DNA of 64,000 nt from Acidobacteriota bacterium (lineage in GTDB: Bacteria > Acidobacteriota > UBA6911 > RPQK01 > JAJDTT01). The position numbers and the translations under genes are program-made. Each line of letters starts with the position of its first letter. Position 1 is the first letter of the stretch. Location: contig OZ242374.1 of NCBI GenBank assembly GCA_965209055.1, forward strand, positions 4,928,001 to 4,992,000, read 5' to 3'. The notes under the pieces are model-generated. The model was not told the origin of the DNA. It worked only from the letters and a program-made list of their open reading frames with translations, and ran no database searches. Shown here piece by piece: positions 27,845 to 43,243 of this stretch.

Positions 27845-28753
27845 CTAACCCAGGATCTCCCGGAGAGCAGGTTCCAGATCGGGGAAGCGAAAGCGGTAGC
27901 CACTCTCCTGAATCCGGCCGGGCAGCACCTTCTTGCTGGAGAGCAGCTCGGTGGCAAACCCGCCCAGAACCAGTTTCAGAGCGAACCCGGGAGTCGGCAG
28001 GAACGCGGGACGGGAGAGAACCCTTCCCAGCGCTTTGGCGAAGTCCTTTTGCCGAACGGGGTTCGAGGACGTCGCGTTGAAGGGACCCGAGAGGTTTTTG
28101 TCGGCCAGCACATGCTGAACCATGCCGATCAGATCCTCCCGGTGAATCCAGGACCACCACTGGCGGCCCGAACCCAGGGGGCCTCCCAGTCCCAGCCGCG
28201 CCGGCAGCAGCATGGCGTCCAGGGCGCCTCCGCCCGCCGCCAGGACAACGCCGATTCGGAGATGGACCACGCGGACGCCCGCCACCGACGCGCGAGCACC
28301 CTCTCTCTCCCATTGGCCACAGATTTCGCCCAGGAAGTCACTCGCTGCCGGCATCGACTCCGTCAACTCCGTCTCTCCCTGGTCGCCGTAGTAGCCGATG
28401 GCGCTGGCCGAAACCAGCGTTCGCGGCCGTCCCTCCACCTGCCGCATGGCGTCGACCAGATTCCCGGTGGACCAGACCCGGCTCTCGCGGATGGCCTGCC
28501 GTTTGCGGGCGGTCCAGCGGCCGACGACGCTCTCGCCCGCCAAGTGGATGACGGCGTCCACCTGCTCCAGGCTCTCCAACGGTGGACCCTCCTCCACCGG
28601 CCGCCATGCGAAAACCCGGGAAAGACTGGGGACGGCTTTCCGGGCCGCGTCCGGACGGCGTGACAGCGCCGTCACCCGGCAACCCGACTCGGACAACACT
28701 TCGCAGAGCCTGCGCCCGACGAATCCGGTGGCTCCGGTAACGAGAACTCTCAT
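27845..28753 (-). CDS. TIGR01777-type NAD-dependent epimerase (YfcH-like)
   Basis: VTGATGFVG, HLAGE, SASAIGYYG, GSGRQWWSWIH and GYRFRFP motifs. Confidence 0.92.
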   Translation of the reverse strand: MRVLVTGATGFVGRRLCEVLSESGCRVTALSRRPDAARKAVPSLSRVFAWRPVEEGPPLESLEQVDAVIHLAGESVVGRWTARKRQAIRESRVWSTGNLVDAMRQVEGRPRTLVSASAIGYYGDQGETELTESMPAASDFLGEICGQWEREGARASVAGVRVVHLRIGVVLAAGGGALDAMLLPARLGLGGPLGSGRQWWSWIHREDLIGMVQHVLADKNLSGPFNATSSNPVRQKDFAKALGRVLSRPAFLPTPGFALKLVLGGFATELLSSKKVLPGRIQESGYRFRFPDLEPALREILG

Positions 28754-28907
28754 TTGACCTTCTCCTCTCCCGGGGACTCCCCACGGGGCCGGTCGTGAAC
28801 AATCCGAAAGGGGCCTCCACCGGACCCCGGGATCACTCCCTCCGGCTCAGTCTACACCTTGGAATGGACGCGGGTTCCAACTATTGGGAATCCCGGCAGG
28901 GCGGGCA

Positions 28908-28966
28908 TAACAGCCCGTGGCAAAAGTCGTCACGGCATTCGACCGTCCCTGCATCCCGGCGGACTG
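28908..28966. repeat. Left half of a split palindromic MITE-like element, ending in the attL-like core CCCGGCGGACTG (28955-28966)
   Basis: TAACAGCCCGTGGCAAAAGTC (28908-28928) is a 19/21 inverted match to 40832-40852. GACCGTCCCTGC pairs with GCAGGAACGGTC near 40807-40818. Confidence 0.8.
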
Positions 28967-29486
28967 ATTCCAGAAATTCCATAAACTACTTAACTTAAAA
29001 GAGTTACGAATACTTCTCCGACTCTCTTCCCCCCATTATTTCCACCTGATCGAATCGGATGCCATTGGCCCTTCGTGGCCGTAAACGGACGTAACCGTTC
29101 GGTCAGGCCGTGGGGATCGACTTCCTGAGCCGAGCCTGCGGCCTCGCGCTCAATGGGGGCAAGCACCTGACGAAGCGCCACTCTTCCACCTCCAATGGGA
29201 TGGAGGCACAGAGCGGATAATGTGCCCCATGGTGTCAAAACGATGCGGTCGAATCGCGTGCCGTGCAAGGATTTTGCAGCCGACGATCACCTGCCGTTTT
29301 CCTTTCCCAGGGAGGTCCTACAGCCGCGAAGAGTGCGTCAAGCCCGACAGCACCTCAAACTCCTCCAACACGGTCCGCCTCGCTTTTTACTGTCTGTCCG
29401 ACGGACAGCCATGTTTCCACAGGGTGTGCTCGACCGGCACACGCAGATGCGCCCGCACATTCTCCGCCAAGAGCAGCCGGAGATCG

Positions 29487-29612
29487 ATCTGCTTCCTCAG
29501 TCTTGAGTTTGAGAATGTGGGTTGCTTTGCGCAGAAACAAGTACGGGACCTTCTCGACCCGAACAACCTCCCAGCCCGGTGGACCTTGCTAGTAGGCGAC
29601 AATGGAGTTGAG
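29487..29612 (+). pseudogene. N-terminal remnant of an AAA/ABC-type ATPase
   Basis: ICFLSLEFENVGCFAQKQVRDLLDPNNLPARWTLLVGDNGV breaks exactly where the Walker A GKT should follow. Confidence 0.55.
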
Positions 29613-29898
29613 AGCCATTGGCCGCCGCTTCAAGCGGCACTCTGGGAGCCGTTTTTGAGGGCGTCCGCAGGGTTGGCTTGGAGCACTGTAAGGTGCCCAA
29701 GCAGCATACCGCAAGTAATACGTTGGGGCTGTCGAGGGGCTCCGCCCCCTCGACCCGGCGGACGCGTCGAGCGGATGCGTCGGTTGCTGGCGAGGTACCG
29801 GACCGTTGTGGTGGTGATGGCGGCGGCGGGGTACTAACGGCTGAAGTTTTTGAGACAGGCCATGTCGATAGCTGGCCCAGCTCGACCGGGAAGGGAGA

Positions 29899-29980
29899 AT
29901 GATGGATCAAGCCATCCACAACGAGATCGTCGCCATCATCCGCAGCATCGATGCCAACCTCGGCTCGCGTTCATATATAA
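29899..29980 (+). pseudogene. Short remnant resembling an HsdM N-terminus
   Basis: After a GGGAG RBS the sequence reads MMDQAIHNEIVAIIRSI, similar to the MDxxxHNKIVSFIWSIA starts of type I methyltransferases, then terminates. Confidence 0.4.
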
Positions 29981-30032
29981 TACCGGACAGTCGGACGCTT
30001 TCAGCAGACGCCAAAAAAAGTGAGTCCCCGCG

Positions 30033-33000
30033 ATGGCGATGATCACACCCGAACGCGATCTTGAGGAGTCCCTTGTCACGAAGCTACGGGACCTCAAGTA
30101 CGAATATCGCCCCAACATCCGCGATCGAGCAACGCTTGAAGCAAACTTCAGGAAAAAGTTCGAAGCCCTGAATCGTGTCACACTCACCGACGGGGAGTTC
30201 CAGCGACTCCTCGATGAGATCGTCACACCCGATGTGTACGAAGCCGCACGCTCACTCAGGAACCGGGAAGCGTTCATCCGCGACGACGGCACGCCGCTCA
30301 ACTACACCCTCGTCAACATAAGGGACTGGTGCAAAAACCACTTCGAAGTCGTCAATCAGCTCCGCATCAATACGGACAACAGCCATCACCGCTACGACGT
30401 CATGCTCCTGATCAACGGCGTGCCCGTCGTTCAGATCGAACTAAAGACGCTTGGGATCAGCCCCCGGCGGGCGATGGAGCAGATCGTTGACTACAAGAAC
30501 GATCCCGGTAACGGATACACCAAGACGCTTCTCTGCTTCGTCCAACTCTTCATCGTCAGCAACCGCACCGACACGTGGTACTTCGCCAACAACAATGGGC
30601 GCCACTTCGCCTTCGACGCGGACGAGCGGTTCCTTCCGATCTACCAGTGCGCGGCCGAGGACAACACGAAGATCACCCACCTCGACGATTTCGCCGATCG
30701 ATTTCTCGCCAAGTGCACGCTTGGCCAGACGATCAGCAAGTACATGGTCCTCATCGCGAGTGAACAGAAGCTCCTGATGATGCGCCCGTACCAGATCTAC
30801 GCCGTCAAGGCCATCGTCGACTGCATCGACCAGAACTGTGGCAACGGATATATCTGGCACACGACCGGCTCGGGCAAGACGCTCACCTCCTTCAAGGCCG
30901 CGACACTCCTCAAGACCAACGACAGCATCCTGAAGTGCCTGTTCGTCGTCGATCGCAAGGACCTCGACCGCCAGACCCGCGAGGAGTTCAACCGGTTCCA
31001 GGAAAACTGCGTCGAGGAAAACACCAACACCGCAGCACTCGTCCGTCGCCTTCTGTCCGACGACTACGCGGACAAGGTCATCGTCACGACCATCCAAAAG
31101 CTCGGGCTCGCACTGGACGAGAACAGAAAGCACACCAAGCAGAGCATCGCTCGGGGGCGGTTAACGTTCAAGCAACGGCTCGAACAGCTTCGAGACAAAC
31201 GGATGGTCTTCATCTTCGACGAGTGCCACCGCTCGCAATTCGGCGAGAACCACAAGGCCATCAAAGAGTTCTTCCCGAACTCCCAGCTCTTTGGCTTCAC
31301 TGGAACGCCGATCTTTGAGGACAACGCGACCGTCACGCAGATCGAGGGAGATGTCGCCACCCTTCGAACCACCAAGGACCTCTTCCACAAAGAGCTCCAC
31401 GCCTACACCATCACACACGCGATCGAGGATCGGAACGTCCTCCGCTTCCACGTCGATTACTACAAGCCAAAGGACGCCTCCGCCCTCAAGCCGGATCAGA
31501 CCCTCACGAAGCAGGCGGTCGCCCAGGCCATCCTCGACAAGCACGATGCCGCGACCGGAAACCGACGCTTCAACGCGCTGCTGGCCACCGCCTCGATCAA
31601 CGACGCGATCGAGTACTACAGGGTCTTCAAGCAGCTTCAGGCCCAACGCTTGGCCAGCGAACCCGAGTTTGTCCCCCTCAAGGTCGCCGCCGTCTTCTCG
31701 CCGCCAGCGGAAGGAAACAAGGATGTCCAACAGATCCAGGAGGACCTCCCCCAGGAGAAAGAGGACAACCGGCATAACCCCGAGAGCAAGAAGACCGCGC
31801 TCAAGGCCATCATCGCCGACTACAACCAGCAGTACGGCACGAACCACGACATCACTAACTTCGACCTCTATTACCAGGACATCCAGCAGCGCATCAAGGA
31901 CCAGCAGTTCCCTAACCGCGACCTGCCCCGCAAGGGCCAGGAGAAGGTCGACATCACGATCGTCGTGGACATGCTCCTCACCGGCTTCGACGCCAAGTAT
32001 CTCAACACACTCTACGTCGAAAAGAACCTCAAGCACCACGGTCTGATCCAGGCCTTCTCCCGCACCAACCGCGTCCTCAACGCGACCAAGCCCTATGGCC
32101 ACATCCTCGACTTCCGCCAGCAGCAAGACAGCGTCGACGACGCCATCTCTCTCTTCTCCGGTGCGCAGGCTGACCGGGCCCACGAGGTCTGGCTAGTCGA
32201 CAAGGCTCCCGTCGCCATCGACAATTTCAGGAAGGCCGTCGCCGACCTCGGCGAGTTCATGCAGTCGCAGGGTCTCGAAGCCAAGCCCGATCAGGTGAAC
32301 AACCTGAGGGGCGACGATGCTCGGGCTCAGTTCATCAAGCGGTTTAGGGAGGTCCAGCGCCTCCAGACCCAGCTCGACCAGTACACCGACCTCACCGACG
32401 AGCAGCAGAAGCAGATCGAGCAAGCTCTCCCGAAGGACGATCTCCGGGCGTTCCGCGGCGTCTATCTCGAAACCGCCCGGCGCCTGAAGGACCAGCAGGG
32501 CACGCTCGGAAAGGACGGCGAGCCAGCCAACCCCGAGGTTGCCCAGCTCGACTTCGAGTTCGTCCTGTTCGCTTCCGCACTCATCGACTACGACTACATC
32601 ATGAAGCTGATCGCCAAGTACTCGGGCCAGGACCCGAAGAGGATCAGGATCAGTCGCGAGCAGCTCATCGGCCTTATCCAGTCCGACGCCAAGTTCCTCG
32701 ACGAGCGGGAAGAGATCACCGACTACGTCCGCTCACTCAAGGAGGGTGAGAGCCTTGACGAGACCGCAGTCCGCGCCGGCTACGAGCAGTTCAAGGCCGA
32801 GAAGCAGGCCAAGGAGATCGAAGGCCTCGCCCAGGTCCACGGTCTGACGACCGAGTCGCTCTCGGGCTTCGTCGACACCATCCTCCAGCGCATGATCTTC
32901 GACGGCGAGCAGCTCACCGACCTGATGGAGCCGCTCGGCCTGGGCTGGCGTGAACGTCGCGAGCGGGAACTCTCCCTCATGGACGACCTCGTCCCGTTCC

Positions 33001-33068
33001 TGAACAAGCGGGCCCACGACCGGGATATCTCGGGACTCAACGCCTACGAGCAGGGGGGCGCGCGATGA
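30033..33068 (+). CDS. hsdR: Type I restriction endonuclease subunit R
   Basis: Nuclease motif RYDVMLLINGVPVVQIELK; helicase motifs HTTGSGKT, DECHRS, FTGTP, DMLLTGFD and QAFSRTNR. Confidence 0.97.
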   Translation: MAMITPERDLEESLVTKLRDLKYEYRPNIRDRATLEANFRKKFEALNRVTLTDGEFQRLLDEIVTPDVYEAARSLRNREAFIRDDGTPLNYTLVNIRDWCKNHFEVVNQLRINTDNSHHRYDVMLLINGVPVVQIELKTLGISPRRAMEQIVDYKNDPGNGYTKTLLCFVQLFIVSNRTDTWYFANNNGRHFAFDADERFLPIYQCAAEDNTKITHLDDFADRFLAKCTLGQTISKYMVLIASEQKLLMMRPYQIYAVKAIVDCIDQNCGNGYIWHTTGSGKTLTSFKAATLLKTNDSILKCLFVVDRKDLDRQTREEFNRFQENCVEENTNTAALVRRLLSDDYADKVIVTTIQKLGLALDENRKHTKQSIARGRLTFKQRLEQLRDKRMVFIFDECHRSQFGENHKAIKEFFPNSQLFGFTGTPIFEDNATVTQIEGDVATLRTTKDLFHKELHAYTITHAIEDRNVLRFHVDYYKPKDASALKPDQTLTKQAVAQAILDKHDAATGNRRFNALLATASINDAIEYYRVFKQLQAQRLASEPEFVPLKVAAVFSPPAEGNKDVQQIQEDLPQEKEDNRHNPESKKTALKAIIADYNQQYGTNHDITNFDLYYQDIQQRIKDQQFPNRDLPRKGQEKVDITIVVDMLLTGFDAKYLNTLYVEKNLKHHGLIQAFSRTNRVLNATKPYGHILDFRQQQDSVDDAISLFSGAQADRAHEVWLVDKAPVAIDNFRKAVADLGEFMQSQGLEAKPDQVNNLRGDDARAQFIKRFREVQRLQTQLDQYTDLTDEQQKQIEQALPKDDLRAFRGVYLETARRLKDQQGTLGKDGEPANPEVAQLDFEFVLFASALIDYDYIMKLIAKYSGQDPKRIRISREQLIGLIQSDAKFLDEREEITDYVRSLKEGESLDETAVRAGYEQFKAEKQAKEIEGLAQVHGLTTESLSGFVDTILQRMIFDGEQLTDLMEPLGLGWRERRERELSLMDDLVPFLNKRAHDRDISGLNAYEQGGAR

Positions 33069-34402
33069 CAGCTGATAGGCCATCGCACCTTATGCCGAGA
33101 CTGCGGTTTCCCGATTTTAAAGACGACCCGTCCTGGTTGGCCCCGCAACTTGCTGAACTATATGACTTTAAGCGCACAAACACGTTGTCGAGAAACAAAC
33201 TCAACTACGTAACCGGGACAATCAGGAACATTCATTACGGCGACATTCACACCAAGTTCAAGCCTCTGTTCCGAGTGGTTGAAGAGGATGTGCCGTACAT
33301 AAATCCAGATGTATCGGCTAATGCAATCAATGATGACGCATTCTGTGAGGAAGGCGACATTGTGCTTGCTGACGCTTCAGAAGACCTCGACGACGTCGGT
33401 AAGGCAATCGAAATTGTTTCGCTAGGCGGAGAACGCCTCGTCGCTGGGACGCACACCATTCTCGCGACGCGGCGAGGAAGCGTTCCTGTCCTTGGATTTG
33501 GCGGCCAATTATTCCAATCTGCTTCTGTTCGCGCAGGGGTAAGAAAAGAAGCTCAAGGCGCGAAGGTCTACGGCATATCGGCGAAGCGCATTTCGGATGT
33601 TCCGATCCCAGTACCTCCGACGAAGGACGAGCAGCAGAAGATCGCCGACTGCCTCGGCTCGCTGGACGACCTGATCGCTGCGGAGGGCCGGAAGCTAGAA
33701 GCCCTGCGGCAGCACAAACAAGGGCTGTTGCAGCAGCTCTTCCCCGAGCCTGGCGAAACCCAGCCGCTTCTCCGATTCACAGAGTTTCGCGACGCCCCTG
33801 ACTGGGAGCAGACTGCGCTGGGCACGCGCTTGGATCGTCCACCCGAATACGGCGTAAATGCACCGGCGGTGCCGTTCTCCGAGGACCTGCCAGCATACAT
33901 CCGCATCACCGACATCGACGACAATGGTTGGTTTGTTCCGGCTCCACGTGTATCAGTCGATATCGAACCCAGCGAAGATCAGTTCCTTCATCCGGGAGAC
34001 ATCGTGCTTGCGCGGACCGGGGCCAGCGTTGGCAAATCATACCGCTATCGTGTGGAAGACGGGCGCCTGGTCTTTGCTGGCTTTCTGATTCGGGTGAGAC
34101 CTAACCTGGACCGGCTCGTTCCAGAGTTTCTATCCGCATACCTCTCGACCTGGAGCTACTGGGATTGGGTGCGTCTCACGTCTGAACGTAGCGGACAACC
34201 GGGAATCAATGGGAGCGAATACGCATCAATGCCGCTTACTATGCCGACCCACGCTGCCAGCGCGTCCGAACAGCGCAAGATTGGCGACTGTGTCGCCGTA
34301 CTTGACGAGGGCATTGCTGAACAACGGCAAAAGCTGCGGGCGTTGAAATGTCACAAGAACGGTATGTTGCAACAGTTGTTCCCTACTCCGAGGGCGATAT
34401 GA
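33065..34402 (+). CDS. hsdS: Type I restriction-modification specificity subunit S
   Basis: Two TRDs, each preceded by PRLRF/PLLRF and followed by EQQKIADCL..KQGLLQQLFP or EQRKIGDC..KNGMLQQLFP. Confidence 0.95.
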   Translation: MTADRPSHLMPRLRFPDFKDDPSWLAPQLAELYDFKRTNTLSRNKLNYVTGTIRNIHYGDIHTKFKPLFRVVEEDVPYINPDVSANAINDDAFCEEGDIVLADASEDLDDVGKAIEIVSLGGERLVAGTHTILATRRGSVPVLGFGGQLFQSASVRAGVRKEAQGAKVYGISAKRISDVPIPVPPTKDEQQKIADCLGSLDDLIAAEGRKLEALRQHKQGLLQQLFPEPGETQPLLRFTEFRDAPDWEQTALGTRLDRPPEYGVNAPAVPFSEDLPAYIRITDIDDNGWFVPAPRVSVDIEPSEDQFLHPGDIVLARTGASVGKSYRYRVEDGRLVFAGFLIRVRPNLDRLVPEFLSAYLSTWSYWDWVRLTSERSGQPGINGSEYASMPLTMPTHAASASEQRKIGDCVAVLDEGIAEQRQKLRALKCHKNGMLQQLFPTPRAI

Positions 34403-35484
34403 CGACCATCGAAGACATCGCCATCAGACTGCGCGACGGCGCTGCTAACGTTCAACTGCTCTACGCCTTCAACTCGGTGGGCAAGACGCGGCTGTCGGTC
34501 GCGTACAAAAACGCAACAAAAGACGCCGAAGGTAGGCACGCGGGCATCTACTACAACGCATACAGCGAGGATCTCTTCGTCTGGAACAATGACATCGAGA
34601 ACAGTGAGGCCAACATTCGACTCACCGTCCTCCCGAGCAGTCTCAGCAGGCTTCACGCCGATCTTAACGAACTCGACATCCACGCGAAGCTGAAACCTTA
34701 TAGACCGAGCTTCGACTTCCGCTTCGTCACGCACCGAGATGCGGAGAAGGGAATCGAGTCGATTTCATTTTTCCCCGCGGGTACGCAGCCCGGAGACGTT
34801 CCGGCGATGAAGATCTCCCGTGGCGAGGAGCGAGTGTTTGTCTGGTGCTTCTTTCTAGCGATGATGGAAGTGGAAGGTTGGGCGGATAGGCAGCCTCGCC
34901 ATATATTCATCGACGATCCGGTCTCAAGCCTCGACGACCACAATATCTTCGTGACCGCATCGACGCTGTACGACTTAATCAAGAAGCACTACGGCGACCG
35001 GAAGATCATCATTGCCACCCATCATGTCGGGATGTTCTCCATCCTGTGCGATTGGTTGAAGAAGGGCGAGAAGAGCGACAAGTACAAGCCGAAGACAAAG
35101 GCGAGCATTCTGAGCGTTAAACGCGGTGAGGTTTCGCTGGAGACCCACCGGAGCGACGTGTTCCTCTATCACCTCCGAGTCCTTCAGTTGCTGGATCAAG
35201 CTCGGCAAGAGAAGAATGTTCGTGCATACCACTTCGCCCTTCTCCGTCAGCTGCTAGAGAGCGTGTCGTCGTTCCTTGGTGTCGGTCGGATCAGCTATGC
35301 ATTCAAACGCATCGGCTTCGAGGATGCGGATGAGATCGCCCGCATCGTAAACACCCTCGCCCACAAGAATGTCTACTACTTCGAATCCGACCTCCTCGTA
35401 CCGGACAGCTTGGCGCTGTTTGAGGAGATTTATGCGAAGCTGAAGACGCGGTACGCGTTCGTCACCCATGCCAGCAAACCATGA
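34399..35484 (+). CDS. prrC: PrrC-type anticodon nuclease (ABC ATPase plus HEPN)
   Basis: YAFNSVGKTRLS Walker A, YYNAYSEDLF, KISRGEE PrrC box, FIDDPVSSLD Walker B, THH, and HEPN-like LRQLLE..RIVNTLAH. Translationally coupled within the hsd operon. Confidence 0.85.
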   Translation: MTTIEDIAIRLRDGAANVQLLYAFNSVGKTRLSVAYKNATKDAEGRHAGIYYNAYSEDLFVWNNDIENSEANIRLTVLPSSLSRLHADLNELDIHAKLKPYRPSFDFRFVTHRDAEKGIESISFFPAGTQPGDVPAMKISRGEERVFVWCFFLAMMEVEGWADRQPRHIFIDDPVSSLDDHNIFVTASTLYDLIKKHYGDRKIIIATHHVGMFSILCDWLKKGEKSDKYKPKTKASILSVKRGEVSLETHRSDVFLYHLRVLQLLDQARQEKNVRAYHFALLRQLLESVSSFLGVGRISYAFKRIGFEDADEIARIVNTLAHKNVYYFESDLLVPDSLALFEEIYAKLKTRYAFVTHASKP

Positions 35485-37109
35485 CAGAGGACAACCAGAA
35501 ACAGCTTGGCAAAACGCTCTGGTCCATCGCCGACCAGCTACGCGGGGCGATGAACGCAGACGACTTCCGCGACTACATGCTCGCGTTCCTATTCCTCCGC
35601 TACCTCTCGGACAACTACGAGCGGGCCGCGAAGAAGGAACTCGGGCGCGACTACCCCGACCCGAACGCCATCGCCAACGGCGGGCGGTCCTCCCTGTCTG
35701 ACTGGTACCAGCAGAACCCCGAAGACGTGTCGGCATTCGAGAAGCAGATGCGTCTCAAGGCGCACTATGTCATTCGCCCCGAGCACCTCTGGACTAGCAT
35801 CTTCCACATGGCCCGTACTCAGGAGAGCGATCTGCTCAACACCCTCCAGGCAGGCTTCAAATACATCGAGAACGAGTCATTCCAGAGCACGTTCTCGGGC
35901 CTGTTCTCGGAGATCAATCTCGGCTCCGACAAGCTTGGCAAGACCTACAGAGACCGGAACGCGAAGCTCTGCACGATCATCACCAGGATAGCCGAGGGCC
36001 TCTCGGAGTTCTCCACCGACAGCGACACCCTGGGCGACGCCTATGAGTACCTGATCGGGCAGTTCGCTGCTGGATCGGGCAAGAAGGCCGGGGAGTTCTA
36101 CACGCCGCAGCGGATCTCGGACATCCTCTCCGCGATCGTCGCGCTAGACGGCCAGGAGCCGAAGACCGGCAAGCGGAAACATCTCGCCAGCGTGATGGAC
36201 TTCGCCTGTGGCTCGGCCTCGCTGCTGCTCAATGTGCGCAAGCGCATGGGGCGGCACGGCATCGGCAAGATCTACGGACAGGAGAAGAACATCACCTCCT
36301 ACAACCTCGCGCGGATGAACATGCTGCTGCACGGGGTGAAGGACTCAGAGTTCGATATCTATCACGGTGACACGCTGACCAACGACTGGGACTTTCTCCG
36401 CGAGACGAACCCGGCCAAGAAGCCCCACTTCGACGCCGTGGTTGCCAACCCGCCGTTCAGCTACCGCTGGAACCCGAACGAGGCGTTAGTCGAGGACGTG
36501 CGCTTCAAAAACTACAGACTGGCCCCGAAGTCGGCGGCGGACTTCTCGTTCCTCCTGCACGGCTTTCACTACCTAAAGGATGATGGTGTGATGGCGATCA
36601 TCCTGCCGCACGGCGTGCTGTTCCGTGGCGGCGCGGAGGGGAAGATTCGCCGCAAGCTCCTTGACGACGGGCACATCGACACCGTCATCGGGCTGCCGGC
36701 GAATCTATTCTACTCGACCGGCATCCCGGTCTGCATCCTCGTCCTGAAGAAGTGCAAGAAGCCCGATGATGTCCTGTTCATCAACGCATCCGAGCATTTC
36801 GAGAAGGGCAAACGACAAAACTACTTGTCCGACGAGCATATCGAGAAGATCATCGACACCTACCAGCAGCGTCGGGAGCTCATCGAGCGGTACGCCAGAC
36901 GCGTGGGGATGGACGAGATTGAGGCCAACGACTACAACCTGAACATCTCGCGCTATGTCAGCACGGCCAAGCAGGAGGTCGCGATCAATCTGTCGGCCAC
37001 GCACAAGGAGTTGGTCGAAGTCGAGAATCTGATTCAGGAGACAACGGCGAAGCACAACACGTTTCTGAAGGAACTTGGGCTATCCCCATTGCCAGCGCCC
37101 AATAAGTAA
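35481..37109 (+). CDS. hsdM: Type I restriction-modification DNA methyltransferase subunit M
   Basis: LWSIADQLRG, GEFYTP, DFACGS, NPPF and ILPHGVLFRGG motifs. Confidence 0.97.
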   Translation: MTEDNQKQLGKTLWSIADQLRGAMNADDFRDYMLAFLFLRYLSDNYERAAKKELGRDYPDPNAIANGGRSSLSDWYQQNPEDVSAFEKQMRLKAHYVIRPEHLWTSIFHMARTQESDLLNTLQAGFKYIENESFQSTFSGLFSEINLGSDKLGKTYRDRNAKLCTIITRIAEGLSEFSTDSDTLGDAYEYLIGQFAAGSGKKAGEFYTPQRISDILSAIVALDGQEPKTGKRKHLASVMDFACGSASLLLNVRKRMGRHGIGKIYGQEKNITSYNLARMNMLLHGVKDSEFDIYHGDTLTNDWDFLRETNPAKKPHFDAVVANPPFSYRWNPNEALVEDVRFKNYRLAPKSAADFSFLLHGFHYLKDDGVMAIILPHGVLFRGGAEGKIRRKLLDDGHIDTVIGLPANLFYSTGIPVCILVLKKCKKPDDVLFINASEHFEKGKRQNYLSDEHIEKIIDTYQQRRELIERYARRVGMDEIEANDYNLNISRYVSTAKQEVAINLSATHKELVEVENLIQETTAKHNTFLKELGLSPLPAPNK

Positions 37110-38041
37110 TCGAAGCGATCCCTCCGGCTATGGCTGGCGCTGCATGCACGCGGCGCTGAGGGATCGAGGCTGGATCATGAAGCACATGAAGATCAAACGC
37201 CTGATGGCGACTGTACGAGCAGACCATCGAGCGGGCGGAGGCCGCTGAAGCGCGTGCGGAGGAGTTGAAGTGGACGGAGATGGCCGCCCACAGCGCGGAG
37301 GGTTCGTTAATGAGAACGGAAGATCACCGTTTACAGGGACATTTTGAGCGGCGTGGATTCGTCGAGTTTCAGACGTCTCGAGATTCCTCGGTGAAAACGC
37401 GGCAGCAATCAAAGGTCCACGATCGAAAGCTCGTGATGGAGGGAGACGATTATGGCGTGATGCTCGGCGGTCAATTTGTGTCGCTGACATGTGGTCGCCA
37501 TTCTTGGATTGAAATGCCCAAGCTCGTAATCTAGTACCCAACTTGGACTCCTGTCCGGTTCCTTCCTCATTGGATCGCCCGATTCAGGAACTTATTGGGC
37601 AAGACTTGGCCGTTCAGGTGCTGGATTGGCGATGATAGCTTCGCGCGAGCGTTCCAGGTGCACCATAGACGGCCTGCACCGCGCGCTCCCACTTCAAACA
37701 AGACCACCATTCCGATCGTAACGACGATATTTTCTTCTCCGGGACCGAATTCGGCCGAACTCTCCTGGACAACACTGGCCCTCTGAGCGCGTCTCTTTTT
37801 TCGGACTCTGACGAATTCGGTTCCAGAGGAGATTCCGGCGCCAACACCGAGCACTTTGGCCTCGATCACCGCATACAGTATCGGCTCGTGAACCGCGATC
37901 CGATCCGGGATTGTCCCCAGGCCTGGGAAGGGGATCCTATCCGGTGCGCCAGACCACGGCCGCCGATCCAGCCGGAACGAGAACCACAATTCTCCACTTC
38001 ATAGGACGATTCTTATACCTTCCCGTAGGGATATTTTGGAA

Positions 38042-38132
38042 GGGAGCGACCCCCCCAGGGGGTGTTGCGCAGATGTAAGTTGCGCCACACCCCCGCGCCC
38101 GCACCGGGCAGCAAAAAGGGGGGGTCGCTCCC
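38042..38132. repeat. Nested inverted repeat (15-bp outer stem, 14-bp inner stem)
   Basis: GGGAGCGACCCCCCC (38042-38056) and GGGGGGGTCGCTCCC (38118-38132) match perfectly; inner GGGGGTGTTGCGCA / TGCGCCACACCCCC match 13/14. Confidence 0.85.
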
Positions 38133-38311
38133 GTCCACCTCCGATTTCCCCGTGCGGGCGCGGCGAAGCCGGGAATGTGGCCGTAACGGCATGAGCGACA
38201 AAGAGTTCGGGGAAATCGCGTGTGTAAGTGAAATCGCTCCCCTGTTGTAAGTCGCCCCCGTTGTCTCACTTACACTCCCGGATCGACACCGGGAAGCCCT
38301 TTCACCTCCCC

Positions 38312-38563
38312 ATGAACACTGTCGGTCCGCAGGTGACGCAGCAGTCGCAGGCGCCGGAGGCGCTGGGCCTTTACCGGCGGCTGTTCCCGTGCCGCCACCA
38401 TGCCGGCCATGCCCAGGGACGGAGCCGTTACTTCCTCCGCAAGCTCCCCCTGGCCCTAGAGGAGGAGCAGGTCATCCGCCGCATCGGGCAGGCCGTCCGG
38501 ACCAACGACCGGGAGTGCCTCGCCCGCTACGGTGGCTTTGTGAAAGCCATGGACCACCGCTAG
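38312..38563 (+). CDS. Small hypothetical protein (83 aa)
   Basis: ATG-started ORF with GC3-rich codons (MNTVGPQ..LYRRLFP..RYFLRKLPLALEEEQVIRRIGQAVR) inside the hairpin module. No clear RBS. Confidence 0.45.
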   Translation: MNTVGPQVTQQSQAPEALGLYRRLFPCRHHAGHAQGRSRYFLRKLPLALEEEQVIRRIGQAVRTNDRECLARYGGFVKAMDHR

Positions 38564-38975
38564 GCGCTACCGGAGCGGGCCATCGCCCCCATCCCCCAAA
38601 ACCGCATCCGCATCGACCGGGGCCGGACCTGGCTCTCGGTCCGGATTCCAGCGGAACCGGGGGGAGGGTTGTGGAGCGCCTCTGGGGCCGCGCGCGCCCG
38701 GTCCCGGGTGGACACTGTGGACGTCGTGGAACCACGGGCTGCGAAGAGCACGGAAAGTCCCATTGAGGGCAGTGCGGCGGTCCGCTCCCGGGCCGTGTTC
38801 CACCTCCGGGGGGCCGGTCCGGCGAAGTCCCAGGATGTGAAACACACATGGGGGGGTGTGTTCCACTCTCGGAGCGGCGAGTTTCACAAGCCCCCTTTCC
38901 GCCATCCTGTTGAGCCCCTTCGGGTTGTCCCCGTCCTTCCGGAGGAGGCGCGCCCGGACGGGGAGTCCGGGGAGG

Positions 38976-39085
38976 AGAAGTGAGCGACCCCCCTGTTTTC
39001 GTGCCTCGCACGTCACGCAAGCGCTGCCCGTGTTCCACTCCGTTGGACACCGGCGCGGCATGCTCGGGGGGGGTCGCTCACTTCT
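38976..39085. repeat. 18-bp perfect inverted repeat homologous to the 38042 stem
   Basis: AGAAGTGAGCGACCCCCC (38976-38993) and GGGGGGTCGCTCACTTCT (39068-39085). Confidence 0.85.
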
Positions 39086-39350
39086 TCATTGATCCCTGCG
39101 GGAAGGCCTCTGCGAAGATGGGGAAAGGAGAATTCCAGTCTGTCGTGAGAGAATGCCCCGCATGGGAGAGGACAACGTCCAACGGCCTATCCCGAACCCT
39201 TGGCCCGGTCTCACCAAGCCAACACAGGCGAAATGGCGGGCTTGTTTTTTCGGGAATTCTCGAAGACTGCGCCTGAGTGAGTTTCAGGCGGCGAATCGGC
39301 GGGCTATGGCTTCGCGCAGGCCTTCAATCTGCCGCTCTACGCACGGCGGA

Positions 39351-40574
39351 TCAACGGAGCCGGACGGCCGCCGGGTCTCGACTCTCGCCAGCCAGGTAGT
39401 CCGACCAGTCGTCCATGAGCCGGCGCCGGCGCTCGAACAGGTCCGTGCGCCGGTAGGCCGCCTCGATCGGGTTGCGCACCTTGTGCGCCAAAGCCGCCTC
39501 CGCCACCTCGCGCGGATGATCCGTCTCCTCCGCCGCCCAGTCCCGGAAACTCGACCGGAACCCGTGCGGTACCGCCGCGATCCTCAACCTCCGGAGCAGC
39601 TCCGCCATCGCCGTGTTCCCGACTGGCTTTCCGCCCACGCTCGGAAACACGAGGGGTCCGATGCCACCGAGGGCCCGCGCCTCCTCCAGGATCTCCAACG
39701 CTCGCCGGGACAACGGGACCCGGTGCTCCCGATTCCCCTTCGTACGCCGGGCCGGGATGGTCCACACCCCCTCCTCCCGGTCGATCTCCGTCCACGCGGC
39801 CCTGCGGACCTCGCCGGAGCGTGTCGCCGTCAACACCAGAAACTCGAAGGCCAGCTTCAACACCGGCCGTGCGTTGGCCCCCTGCACCGACTGGAGCGCG
39901 GCCGCCACCTTCCGGTGGGGCAACGCCCGCATGTGACGCACCACCTTTCCCTGCGCACCGAGCACCGGGCCGATCCGGTCACAGGGGTTGTCGGGCCGAA
40001 GATCCATCGCCACGGCCCACTTCAGGACCGCGCGGATGCGCTGGCGCAGCTTCCGGGCGGTGGAGGCCTTCTCGTGCCAGATCGGAGCGAGAATTCCGAT
40101 CACGTCGGCGCTCGTCACTTCCGCAATCGGCATCTCACCGATGCGGGGGAAGGCGTGGTGCTCCAGGCTCCCCAGCCAGAGCCGCGCATGCCGGGCGGAG
40201 CGCCAGCCCGGTCGCAACTGCTTCCAGACCGTCCGGGTGGCGTCAGCGAAGGTGGGCATCGCCACGGACTCCCGCTTCCCGGCCCGGGGGTCGCCTCCCT
40301 CACGGGCCAGCTTGCGGTTGGCGAACGCCTTCTCGCGCGCTTCCTTGAGCGAGACGAGGGGGAATCCACCGAGTCCGAGCTCGGCTCGGCGGCCACGGAT
40401 GGTGAGGCGTTGAATCCAGCCCCGACTGCCCGTGGGCCGGACGTCGAGATAAAGCCCCTGGCCGTCGCAGTAGCGTCCGGCCTGGTTCACGTTGCGGACG
40501 AAGACCGGGGTCAGGGCGTTGAGGGGATGCCGGCCGCGCGGCTTGCGTTTCGGGGGACGTTTCACAAGCGTCAT
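39351..40574 (-). CDS. P4-like tyrosine integrase with arm-binding domain
   Basis: N-terminal GRYCDGQGLYLDV..W..R..GLG.FP.VSLKEAR arm-binding domain. Catalytic residues in TATRSGE, TK, HGFR, LAH and AAY are all present. Confidence 0.95.
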   Translation of the reverse strand: MTLVKRPPKRKPRGRHPLNALTPVFVRNVNQAGRYCDGQGLYLDVRPTGSRGWIQRLTIRGRRAELGLGGFPLVSLKEAREKAFANRKLAREGGDPRAGKRESVAMPTFADATRTVWKQLRPGWRSARHARLWLGSLEHHAFPRIGEMPIAEVTSADVIGILAPIWHEKASTARKLRQRIRAVLKWAVAMDLRPDNPCDRIGPVLGAQGKVVRHMRALPHRKVAAALQSVQGANARPVLKLAFEFLVLTATRSGEVRRAAWTEIDREEGVWTIPARRTKGNREHRVPLSRRALEILEEARALGGIGPLVFPSVGGKPVGNTAMAELLRRLRIAAVPHGFRSSFRDWAAEETDHPREVAEAALAHKVRNPIEAAYRRTDLFERRRRLMDDWSDYLAGESRDPAAVRLR

Positions 40575-40735
40575 ACCCACCACTATACCCCCACAATATC
40601 GTGGATGCAAGAGGATGGAGCGGATCGTTATGGGACACTGGAGAACGTCAGAAATCCTGATAAATCAATGAAAAACAGACACTTATGCAAAATATTGGAC
40701 ATATCTGGACGCTATGCCCATCCAACAAACTACAG

Positions 40736-40852
40736 CCCGGCGGACTGCGTTGCGATTCGGGCACATACTCCCGGTATGCACCCGAATCGCGCCTTGTCCG
40801 GCGGGCGCAGGAACGGTCTCGGTGCTCGCGGGACTTTCGCCACGGACTGTTA
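40736..40852. repeat. Right half of the split palindromic MITE-like element, starting with the attR-like core
   Basis: CCCGGCGGACTG, then hairpin GCGATTCGGG-cacatactcccggtatgca-CCCGAATCGC, then terminal GACTTTCGCCACGGACTGTTA (40832-40852). Confidence 0.8.
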
Positions 40853-40978
40853 AACATCGCCGGGGCACGGGAAGTTCTCCGGGGACGGCAATGGTCGCCG
40901 ATCCGCGCCCTATGGTACGCTCGGCTGCCTGCGGTCCGGGATCGGCTTCGGTTGGCCACCACCTGCTCCTGACGAGTC

Positions 40979-43243
40979 ATGAACCCGATTCAAGCTCCCG
41001 TCACCAAGGATCTGGTTCTGGTCGGCGGCGGTCACAGCCACGTGGGAGTCCTGAAGGGCTTCGGCGCAAAGCCCATGCCGGGCGTTCGCCTGACCCTCGT
41101 CACCCGGGACGTCCACACCCCGTACTCCGGCATGCTTCCGGGCCTGATCGCCGGTCACTACGAATACGACGAGACGCACATCGACCTGGGGCCTCTCTCC
41201 CAGTTTGCGGGCGCCCGCCTCTACCATGATGAGGCCGTCGGCCTGGACCTGGATTCCAAAAGGATTCTGTGCCGGTCCCGGCCGCCCGTGCCCTACGATC
41301 TGATCTCCATCAATATCGGCTCCACTCCCACTCTCGACCCGGTTCCGGGAGCCGCCGAATCGGTGGTTCCGGTCAAGCCCATCGGCAACTTTCTCCACCG
41401 CTGGACCGAGGTCAGGCAACGCGTCCTGGCCAGACCCGGAAGAACCCGCATCGGCGTGGTCGGAGCCGGAGCCGGCGGCGTCGAGCTCCTGTTGTCGGTC
41501 CGCCATGCGCTGGAGACATTGCGCCGGGAATCGGGCCGGCCCCTCCGGCCTCCGGAGTTCCATCTTTTCTTCGAGTCCGGCACCATCCTTCCCACCCACA
41601 ATCAGTGGGTCCGGTCCAAGTTTCAGCGCGTGCTCAGCCGTCGTGGCATCCGGCTCCACCCGGGATTGAGGGTCGTCCGGGTCCGGGGCCGAACCCTGGC
41701 GTTGGAGGACGGGTCCAGCCATGAACTGGATGAGATTCTATGGGTCACACAGGCTTCGGCCCCCGATTGGCTGCGGGAGTCGAAGCTGGAGGTGGACTCC
41801 CGGGGATTCGTGAAAGTCGAAGCCACCCTGGAGTCGACCTCCCATCCGGGAGTCTTCGCCGCGGGAGACGTGGCCGCCGTGGCTTCCCATCCCCGGGAGA
41901 AGGCGGGGGTCTTCGCCGTCCGCCAGGGCAAGCCGCTCGAACGGAATCTCCGGCGGTCCCTGGAGGGACTTCCTCCGAAACCGTTTCATCCCCAGCGGAA
42001 ATTCCTGAGCCTGATCAGCACCGGGGACCGGCGGGCCGTGGCCTCCCGAGGCTCCTGGTCCATGGAGGGGCGTTGGGTCTGGCATTGGAAGGACCGGATC
42101 GACCGGCGATTCATGGCGCGCTTCAACGATCTCCCGGAGATTCAAGCCGCGCCGGCCGTTTCCCCTGGGAGAGGGACCATGAAGACGCCGGCGGCCCCGG
42201 CTGGGGCTCGCCTGATGCGTTGCCGGGGATGCGGATCCAAGGTGGGGGCCGCCGTCCTGGAACGGGTGCTGGGCCGGATCGATCCGGGAAACCTCCCGGA
42301 TGTGGTGCTGGGACTGGAGGCCGGAGAGGACGCGGCTGCGCTGTCGGTCCCGCCGGGACAGACGCTGCTCCAGTCGGTCGACATGTTTCCGGCGATCGTC
42401 GACGATCCTTTTGTCTTCGGCCAGATTGCCGCCAACCACTGTCTGAGCGACATCTTCGCCATGGGCGGCCGGCCCCGGACTGCACTGGCCATCGCTACGC
42501 TGGTCCTGGCTTCCGAAGGCAAAATGGAAGTGACATTGGAGGAGTTGCTGCAAGGCGCGAGACGGGTCCTGCACCGGGCCGGAGCCGAGTTGGTGGGAGG
42601 CCACACCCTGGAGGGCCCCGAGTTGGCCTTGGGATTGGCCGTCTCGGGCCTCGCCGATTCCGGCCGGCTCCTGCGCAAAGGGGCGATGGCGCCCGGAGAC
42701 CGCCTCATCCTGACCAAGCCCCTGGGGACCGGCGCCCTTTTTGCCGCTCAAATGCGGCTGAAGGCCAAGGGCCGCTGGATTCAGGGAGCTCAGGAGTCCA
42801 TGCTGCGGTCCAATCAGCAAGCCGCAGAGAGCTTTCTCCGGCACGCGGTCCATGCCTGCACCGATGTGAGTGGATTCGGTCTCCTGGGGCACCTGTTCGA
42901 AATGGTCCGGGATTCGAACGTCCAGGTCAGGATCTCACTGCCCGCCGTCCCCCTTCTGGAAGGGGCCATCGAGACCGCCGGCGCCGGAATCCACAGCTCG
43001 CTCCATCCTCAAAACCTCCGATTGCAGCAAACGGTTCGGAACCCTAGACTGGCGTCGACAGCACCGGCCTTCCCGCTGTTGTGCGATCCCCAGACCGCGG
43101 GAGGATTGTTGGCCAGCGTGCCTGGCCAACGCGCGGAAACCTGTGTCGAAGAGCTGCGGGCGGGGGGCGACCCCGAGGCAGCTATCATTGGCGCCGTGGA
43201 AGCGAAGGAGGGTGGGCGCGAACCCATCATCATCGACCTCTGA
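40979..43243 (+). CDS. selD: Selenide, water dikinase fused to an N-terminal FAD/NAD oxidoreductase domain
   Basis: N-terminal VLVGGGHSH..YSGMLPG..FAAGD; C-terminal MRCRGCGSKVG, LSDIFAMGG, GGHT, LTKPLGTG, TDVSGFGLLGHL and DPQTAGGLL. Confidence 0.92.
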   Translation: MNPIQAPVTKDLVLVGGGHSHVGVLKGFGAKPMPGVRLTLVTRDVHTPYSGMLPGLIAGHYEYDETHIDLGPLSQFAGARLYHDEAVGLDLDSKRILCRSRPPVPYDLISINIGSTPTLDPVPGAAESVVPVKPIGNFLHRWTEVRQRVLARPGRTRIGVVGAGAGGVELLLSVRHALETLRRESGRPLRPPEFHLFFESGTILPTHNQWVRSKFQRVLSRRGIRLHPGLRVVRVRGRTLALEDGSSHELDEILWVTQASAPDWLRESKLEVDSRGFVKVEATLESTSHPGVFAAGDVAAVASHPREKAGVFAVRQGKPLERNLRRSLEGLPPKPFHPQRKFLSLISTGDRRAVASRGSWSMEGRWVWHWKDRIDRRFMARFNDLPEIQAAPAVSPGRGTMKTPAAPAGARLMRCRGCGSKVGAAVLERVLGRIDPGNLPDVVLGLEAGEDAAALSVPPGQTLLQSVDMFPAIVDDPFVFGQIAANHCLSDIFAMGGRPRTALAIATLVLASEGKMEVTLEELLQGARRVLHRAGAELVGGHTLEGPELALGLAVSGLADSGRLLRKGAMAPGDRLILTKPLGTGALFAAQMRLKAKGRWIQGAQESMLRSNQQAAESFLRHAVHACTDVSGFGLLGHLFEMVRDSNVQVRISLPAVPLLEGAIETAGAGIHSSLHPQNLRLQQTVRNPRLASTAPAFPLLCDPQTAGGLLASVPGQRAETCVEELRAGGDPEAAIIGAVEAKEGGREPIIIDL

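Follow-up and report, generated by a model that had tools for sequence, protein, structure and literature searches.

A window of 64,000 nucleotides (positions 4928001-4992000 of the genome designated here G000, a 6.08-Mb single-contig metagenome-assembled genome, MAG) contains an 11.8-kb defence island, 28967-40747, in which hsdR, hsdS, prrC and hsdM are accompanied by the gene of a P4-like tyrosine integrase. This island very probably entered a pre-existing miniature inverted-repeat transposable element (MITE) of about 160 bp by conservative site-specific recombination, using its own integrase. P4-like integrases usually target tRNA or tmRNA genes or the conserved ends of genes, and they are single-site enzymes, so that each integrase family normally has a single slot per genome. 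The target described here is an arm of a dispersed repeat, neither the 3' part of a tRNA or tmRNA gene nor a conserved gene end, and related islands with different cargo occupy further copies of the same repeat in the same chromosome and in other species.

An island inside a dispersed repeat

The 12-mer CCCGGCGGACTG is present on the + strand at 28955-28966 and again at 40736-40747, its sole two matches in the 64-kb window. Chance would supply a mean of 0.02 matches per window, and none of 100 dinucleotide shuffles reached two, so that the exact 12-bp direct repeat that the initial annotation placed around the restriction-modification, PrrC and integrase genes is upheld. Positions 28910-28966 (+ strand) form the left part of a split MITE, consisting of a terminal inverted repeat and the left stem arm and representing, together with the core, the left attachment site (attL); over 57-59 nt this part agrees with the corresponding segment of uninterrupted copies at every position (100% identity), and it covers positions 2-61 of an nhmmer profile. 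The second core copy (attR) is followed by the right part of the MITE (40748-40850, + strand), which contains the central hairpin, the right stem arm and the other terminal inverted repeat and shows 95-99% identity, over 102-106 nt, to the corresponding segment of uninterrupted copies. A TA dinucleotide was found at both outer edges (28908-28909 and 40851-40852), as had been reported; comparison of edge dinucleotides identifies the two as the left and right copies of the 2-bp target duplication of the MITE, which matches at the edges of 13 of 15 copies. The short att-like core is thus present at both junctions of the island and single in empty sites. ARAGORN detected no tRNA or tmRNA gene in the whole window and no Rfam family reached its gathering score anywhere in it, in agreement with the earlier view that the target is of another kind.

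The integrase gene (39351-40610, - strand) encodes 419 amino acids from a TTG start, although the true start may be an ATG 12 codons further in, and its frame is open, with no stops. The protein has a three-domain layout with an N-terminal arm-binding domain (PF13356, Arm-DNA-bind_3, 3.8e-17), a central SAM-like domain (PF22022, Phage_int_M, 9.1e-25) and a C-terminal catalytic domain (PF00589, Phage_integrase, 3.1e-14), all above cut-off; the match to NF007246 (1.6e-42) is under the cut-off of that model. In the translation, read by eye, the segments TRSGE, HGFRSSFRDW and AAYRR contain a candidate catalytic R-K-H-R-H/W-Y set. The enzyme would catalyse the recombination and may be active at present.

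The MITE family

When the two outer pieces of the site, 28908-28966 and 40748-40852, were searched separately against G000, they gave 35 and 26 matches, respectively, at E<=1e-3. The pieces abut with a single core at 1074626-1074786, 1238360-1238521, 2985089-2985252 and 4320993-4321153, and a fifth uninterrupted copy with the exact core is located at 4581594-4581728, where the BLAST match covers one end only partly. Since the two pieces abut elsewhere in G000, the joined palindrome that the initial annotation had reconstructed by deleting the island exists as real genomic sequence. G000 contains five uninterrupted copies with the exact core and at least six full copies in which the variant core CACAGGCGCGGAC replaces CATCCCGGCGGAC.

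The repeat is 158-164 bp long and non-coding, and its ends match each other as inverted repeats. For one copy of 161 nt (L006), the fold is a single long hairpin with an energy of -56 kcal/mol (z = -7.8), equalled by 0 of 200 shuffles; in it the core is base-paired to the opposite arm and the central hairpin is present, bearing out the proposal that the att core is itself part of a stem arm. The 2-bp flanking duplication that fits 13 of 15 copies is TA in ten, TG in two and CA in one; a 4-bp, IS5-like duplication was also considered and rejected, as it fits merely 7 of the 15. The family was found in all eight congeneric genomes and in none of the 22 other searched genomes of the order. It shows the features by which MITEs are recognised, namely a short non-coding sequence with inverted repeats, a target duplication and many dispersed copies at unrelated loci; neither G000 nor the loci examined in congeners yielded a full-length partner that combines these ends with a transposase.

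The initial annotation had suggested that, with the MITE ends intact, a cognate transposase might also move the entire cargo. A stronger form of this idea is that the MITE halves are the ends of a 12-kb transposon, that the 160-bp copies are internal deletions of it and that the MITE transposase mobilises the whole, and the terminal inverted repeats and TA edges are indeed intact around the island. However, the core is doubled inside the unit and single in the short copies, which fits att recombination and not deletion, and islands of two sister clades (B and C, described below) have homologous ends but no MITE halves. Furthermore, no transposase was seen between MITE ends: none of the end pairs at most 6 kb apart in G000 encloses one (a single 1.7-kb pair holds nuo genes), no DDE_3 transposase was found in G000, and the 4 IS630-like loci examined, of 43 in congeners, are without MITE ends. 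These searches did not yield the autonomous insertion sequence (IS) with matching ends that the initial annotation proposed to look for. Only one pair of islands has flanks in common, and that pair is part of a segmental duplication. Transposition of the 12-kb unit by MITE transposase therefore appears to be a very unlikely explanation of the island. As a separate observation on these transposases, IS630-type DDE_3 genes are present in 7-22 copies in the congeners G004, G005 and G006 and were not found in G000 or G007, and G007, in which no DDE_3 gene was detected, is nevertheless the richest in MITE copies.

Sister islands in the same chromosome

A tblastn search of G000 with the window integrase revealed five genes of 94-100% identity (clade A), five of 82-88% (clade B) and six of 60-64% (clade C), as well as a few genes near 31% and fragments. 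All five clade-A genes are located about 125 nt from a core within a split MITE, and the five islands so defined differ in what they carry. Island I1 (67860-84046, 16 kb) encodes two leucine-rich-repeat proteins of 1100 and 1230 amino acids and a methyltransferase; I2 (571457-580347, 8.9 kb), a PDDEXK protein matching PADLOC PDC-S26; I3 (2474461-2485454, 11 kb), a type IIG enzyme and a PD-T4-6-type kinase; I4 (3838517-3848529, 10 kb), proteins matching PDC-S14, PDC-S57 and PDC-S11; and I5, the 11.8-kb island of the window, type I restriction-modification with PrrC. The five share the terminal 2.8 kb or so on the integrase side (92-95% identity) and approximately 200 nt at the far end (80-96% overall) and nothing else, the cargo between being unrelated. 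A sixth split MITE (4556130-4560882) retains about 200 nt of the island left end and no integrase, and is a degraded remnant. The expectation that close homologues of the integrase would be flanked by copies split at the same core thus holds for four more genes in G000, and also for the species G007 and G004 discussed below.

Three additional candidate split pairs, I7-I9 (5691039-5707644, 1351851-1363333 and 1002547-1018817), were discarded, their inner ends being unlike the island ends. Regions 66360-85546 and 569957-581847 of G000 constitute a large inverted segmental duplication, whose shared MITE copy holds a different island in each region. The leucine-rich-repeat genes of I1 (L001 3951-7253 and 10358-14050) place eukaryote-like proteins on a vehicle of defence genes.

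Core variants, orientation and a model of integration

On the chromosomal side of the left junction, every occupied MITE has the CATCCCGG form. Of the 11 MITEs with the exact core 6 are occupied, the remnant included, as against none of the six full and none of the three partial ones with the variant CACAGGCGCGGAC. Relative to its MITE, island I4 is inverted; its core in island direction reads CCCGCCGG versus CCCGGCGG in the others, and the sole uninterrupted identity between the I4 site and its target is CCGGCGG, which suggests that exchange took place within those 7 bp and, by extension, that the crossover in the window island lies within the same CCGGCGG. Half-sites that are nearly symmetrical, together with a central base that decides whether the overlaps match, would explain the inversion of I4. 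On contig L074 of genome G008, an island with the CCCGCCGG core is found in direct orientation in a MITE subfamily that has the same core base and that is also represented by copy M12.

On the basis of these patterns, integration can be pictured as follows. The bacterial site, attB, would lie on the left arm of the MITE stem and consist of a near-palindromic core with short inverted half-sites, CAT/CAG-Y and R-CTG, around the 7-bp overlap CCGGCGG. The site on the island, attP, would repeat this core between two arms, one with ATTCC repeats and the other, on the integrase side, with TGGAC repeats, both presumably read by the N-terminal arm-binding domain of the integrase. Strand exchange within the overlap would double the core at the junctions and split the MITE into pieces of 59 and 105 nt, and, the half-sites being almost symmetrical, the direction of insertion would be set by the single asymmetric central base of the overlap. 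Any MITE with the right core would then be a potential landing pad, with the consequence that islands with different cargo could reside together in one chromosome.

Islands could also have spread between MITE copies by homologous recombination or gene conversion through the MITE halves after a single integration, in which case repeated recognition of the MITE by the integrase would be unnecessary. The halves are 93-100% identical between copies, which is sufficient for RecA-type exchange, and I1 and I2 show that whole occupied sites do get duplicated. Such a process, however, does not account for the differences among the five islands in cargo and, by 3-6%, in integrase protein; nor could homologous exchange produce the inverted I4 with its compensating core base. 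In addition, integrases of 87-88% identity are found at the same site in two other species, and the sister clades behave likewise at two unrelated repeat families. We consider it improbable that the islands were distributed in this manner, and favour repeated site-specific integration by the island-encoded enzymes.

Related species, the home locus and evidence for excision

Thirty relatives were searched for homologues of the integrase. In G007, an integrase of 88% identity is found with the same core in a MITE; the island is inverted, and the left half of the MITE, the left-end module and the right half follow in order within 6.2 kb. The integrase of G004, 87% identical, adjoins the right half of a MITE at the same core; there the island is direct and the right half was seen. 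Exact 21-nt empty sites number 5 in G001, 26 in G004, 40 in G005, 44 in G006 and 106 in G007, with none in the reversed control. The multiple uninterrupted copies that had been predicted are therefore at hand, five with the exact core and at least six with the variant core in G000 and 5-106 exact empty sites in each of five congeners, and the presence of empty copies besides copies occupied at several loci and in several species supports the proposal that the integrase targets a dispersed repeat with many landing pads.

Several observations weigh against integration into a MITE as set out above. In the window, the island lies between a gene for an epimerase/DUF1731 protein (yfcH-like) and one for a Pyr_redox_2-AIRS fusion (selD-like), and the initial annotation expected relatives to show the joined 164-bp sequence between these genes. 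It was seen in none of five congeners (85-87% nucleotide identity), which have other DNA there, four of the five carrying another gene. Contigs from four short-read runs (Logan) were compared with 28300-41400; an 8265-nt contig of run X1 matches 28300-28901 (3 differences in 602 positions, ~99.5%) and 40857-41400 (21 in 544, ~96%) with 2687 nt of other sequence between the two, which points to a closely related strain lacking both the MITE and the island and again does not show the joined site. A joint 28954->40736 appears in all four runs, with sides of just 19-47 letters and, in some records, a variant core; the short sides and the variant letters are explained by other MITE copies. Among the joints listed from the four runs there is neither a circle junction nor a locus-specific empty site. 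The listed short-read contigs stop inside the MITE and leave the junctions unbridged, and the genome itself is a single contig assembled from a metagenome. Islands I1 and I2 lie within the segmental duplication, their flanks being 97.0% and 99.3% identical over 1.5 kb; they are accordingly not independent and count as one site. One junction of I2 carries a T within the overlap, and both islands have changes in the half-site, from which it appears that some island copies may be fixed in place. No excisionase was recognised in Pfam and NCBIfam searches of the island open reading frames (ORFs), and the arm sites and cleavage positions proposed above are pattern-based. In a quick tree, finally, clade A falls inside the clade-B integrases from Acidobacteriota, and the branch uniting clade A has 60% support.

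The absence of an empty site at the home locus is not read as refuting the integration of the island into a MITE, as the MITE is itself mobile and the evidence from multiple loci is independent of this one. Some of the same observations could be taken to mean that repeats were misjoined during metagenome assembly, creating false junctions between island and MITE: the genome is a MAG with 7.4% 'contamination', and the listed Logan contigs end within the MITE. Nevertheless, the junction is identical base for base at five loci and recurs in independent assemblies of two other species, and misassembly would not create a duplicated core. We regard an assembly artefact as very unlikely. Beside the insertion site, the selD-type AIRS protein (40979-43243, 754 amino acids) has a pyridine-nucleotide-disulphide oxidoreductase domain fused to its N-terminus, and the runs that contain window sequence are mostly sponge metagenomes.

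Related integrase clades and the repeats they occupy

The integrase belongs to a wider family. A genome scan returned 80 loci, and a relative is encoded in 124 of 172 candidate stretches. Homologues of 75-87% identity are found in MAGs labelled Acidobacteriota and Gemmatimonadota (Longimicrobiales, Palauibacter), among them several closed chromosomes, and single homologue contigs are labelled Gammaproteobacteria and Latescibacterota; viral contigs encode four relatives, the best 27% identical. The junction cores differ between clades, and the quick tree sorts the integrases by core type with 7 label changes, which is the minimum (shuffled mean 26.7). On the Gammaproteobacteria-labelled contig (L043, 17 kb), the island left end is almost identical to the clade-B end at G000 1608352-1608675, so that this contig may reflect either a very recent cross-phylum transfer or mis-binning.

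Clade-B islands occupy a different repeat. Their integrase-side junction reads ..CCCTGCGGGAAGG.., and at four sites the left-end module abuts a truncated repeat of about 270 bp, always at the same point within its first bases, CCTTCCCG.AGGGA. This repeat gives 63 BLAST matches in G000, with 55 copies of at least 200 nt; one copy is located beside the integrase in every clade, that of the window island at 38018-38285 (+ strand), where its first bases equal the clade-B site, and the repeat also adjoins integrase homologues in other MAGs. In its alignment 13-15 base pairs are changed on both sides, supporting a conserved structure. Island B3 is inserted in the 270-bp copy carried by island B2, which indicates that islands nest. 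Clade-C junctions, in turn, lie in the hairpin GGGGGGAC-TGCC-GTCCCCCC, the left ones being at 183448, 463382 and 801791; copies of it at 839188 and near 176682, 1172123 and 1415514 are unoccupied. This hairpin heads arrays of a hairpin resembling repetitive extragenic palindromic (REP) elements, for which there are 136 and 113 pattern matches. The fact that sister clades have the same island ends and other flanks shows that the island stops at the core.

The 270-bp repeat includes a 15-bp G/C stem and, at its head, a conserved hairpin, and its integrase neighbour is seen in MAGs of other phyla as well. Approximately 40 copies are solo, often directly upstream of small ORFs, some of which are zinc-ribbon-like (…IPDIH…RCPxCG…). 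The REP-like hairpin, GGCGG-N6-10-CCGCCGCTCC, has 249 pattern matches in G000, often in tandem (for example at 349349, 453076 and 1797415), and a second hairpin family, GGGGGAC-N-GTCCCC, has 192, counting both strands.

That three clades of one integrase lineage occupy three repeat families, one of them carried by the islands, is the more interesting pattern and has been only partly tested. A joint reading, possible although we hold it to be rather doubtful, is that one lineage in sponge-associated Acidobacteriota and Gemmatimonadota has repeatedly re-tuned its near-palindromic core, with clade A on the MITE, clade C on the G6-AC..GT-C6 hairpin that heads the REP-like arrays and clade B on the island-carried ~270-bp element. 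The islands would bring landing pads with them, nest, and form a self-extending platform that stocks the genome, with its 16 integrase copies in G000, with defence systems and eukaryote-like proteins. The ~270-nt element could additionally be a functional RNA or a DNA cofactor of integration or transfer.

Genes and non-coding modules of the window island

The cargo of the window island is a type I restriction-modification system, with prrC embedded in the operon. All four genes are on the + strand: hsdR, the restriction subunit (30033-33068; Pfam HSDR_N, ResIII, T1R_D3-like and EcoR124_C; PADLOC REase_I, 1134 bits); hsdS, the specificity subunit (33065-34402; Methylase_S; PADLOC Specificity_I, 7.9e-84); a prrC-like anticodon-nuclease gene between hsdS and hsdM (34348-35484; AAA_13; PADLOC PrrC, 1.5e-99, residues 15-375 aligned to profile positions 15-350 of 372); and hsdM, the methyltransferase (35481-37109; HsdM_N and N6_Mtase, 4.2e-105, with a PADLOC match). 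About 2.2 kb between hsdM and the integrase are without recognisable genes. Four ORFs of the island (28990-29268 in the left end, 29497-29919, 37567-37989 and 38567-39061) have no Pfam match, and two of them, including that of the left end, have no NCBIfam match either.

Both island ends are conserved. The non-coding left end, or P arm (28967-29300, + strand), is 76-96% identical to the sister islands and the remnant and 81-85% to clade-B islands, and it occurs at loci in other MAGs. Next to the core it opens with ATTCC-N5-ATTCC, and it includes a 23-bp repeat by which an invertible segment is bordered in sister islands; in clade-B islands this segment is bounded by the 23-bp inverted repeat GTAACCGTTCGGTCAAGCCGTGG. 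Within the left-end module (window 29090-29113; G000 571513-571970 and 3847952-3848409; L040 and L052), a segment of approximately 210-350 nt is inverted between islands, and by its sequence it looks like an invertible switch. The P' arm, which extends from the start of the integrase gene to the core (40611-40735, + strand), has TGGAC-N5-TGGAC about 30 nt from the core; the arrangement is kept in all five clade-A islands and recurs in clades B and C with different letters.

A second conserved non-coding module of approximately 660 nt (38447-39110, - strand) is present in at least ten copies at 86-97% identity. Its beginning matches the 270-bp repeat in head and long stem but lies on the opposite strand; some of its copies adjoin integrases merely 31% identical to that of the window. 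Rfam gave no match at E<=1 in 37900-38400, which includes the 270-bp repeat, or in 38250-39400, which includes the 660-nt module, and the substitutions in the 1.3 kb downstream of the integrase show no codon periodicity.

Implications and relation to known systems

Targeting a transposable repeat lifts the limit of one slot: slots increase in number whenever the MITE transposes, several islands of the same family can coexist, and a site is open in any genome that contains the MITE. This provides a concrete route by which uncultured sponge symbionts could accumulate many defence systems, and it ties two kinds of mobile DNA together in a dependency. A near-symmetrical core with one asymmetric base is, furthermore, a natural experiment on how the overlap controls the direction of a tyrosine recombinase, and integrases that are 82-88% identical and use different short cores are possible orthogonal tools for multi-copy integration.

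Full-text literature searches turned up no paper on a MITE or REP element occupied by an island with a tyrosine integrase. One related class is that of the P4-like tRNA islands, which likewise have, at one end and reading outward, an integrase composed of arm-binding, SAM-like and catalytic domains, as well as a duplicated core and defence cargo; the difference is that the target here is the arm of a dispersed 160-bp MITE, with many sites and five or six islands of one family. Integron attC sites and the pdif sites of XerCD are alike in that tyrosine recombinases act on many imperfect palindromes flanking exchangeable modules, whereas each island described here brings its own arm-binding integrase, the palindrome lies in a transposable MITE, and neither an array nor a host Xer was seen. 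Insertion sequences such as IS1397, ISPpu9/10 and IS621 also target extragenic palindromes, those of REP elements and bacterial interspersed mosaic elements (BIMEs), but they do so with DDE or DEDD transposases that move only themselves, in contrast to tyrosine integrases with cargo islands of 6-16 kb. The recombinase of the Neisseria phage Nf1 is Piv/IS110-like.

For tRNA targets, integrative and conjugative elements (ICEs) at tRNA-Lys offer an example (PMC6053426). Mobile elements that use a multi-copy repeat have been reported as well, and the two closest precedents, both with other recombinases, are of this kind. The Nf1/MDA filamentous prophages of Neisseria integrate into dRS3, present in 200-700 copies per genome, at sites that vary between genomes, and so resemble the present islands in targeting a short dispersed repeat; they differ in being filamentous phages and in that dRS3 is a 20-bp repeat and not a MITE, and where the source names the enzyme it is called only 'integrase' (PMC7058167). 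The phage-inducible chromosomal island-like element (PLE) of Vibrio cholerae is a mobile defence island that inserts site-specifically into the ~124-bp Vibrio cholerae repeat (VCR), of which there are more than 100 copies, so that the flanking genes vary (PMC5481146). As described there, however, the PLE integrase has a serine-recombinase domain, the VCRs are clustered in one superintegron array and PLE transductants each received one PLE (PMC5481146), whereas the window integrase is a tyrosine recombinase, the MITEs are dispersed and have target duplications, and several islands reside together. PLE-type satellites are also marked by a large serine recombinase and a phage-dependent life cycle, features that the window island does not share; in viral contigs the best relative of its integrase is 27% identical. 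The targeting of a multi-copy repeat by an island is thus already known, and the new part is the combination of a P4-like tyrosine integrase with a transposable MITE.

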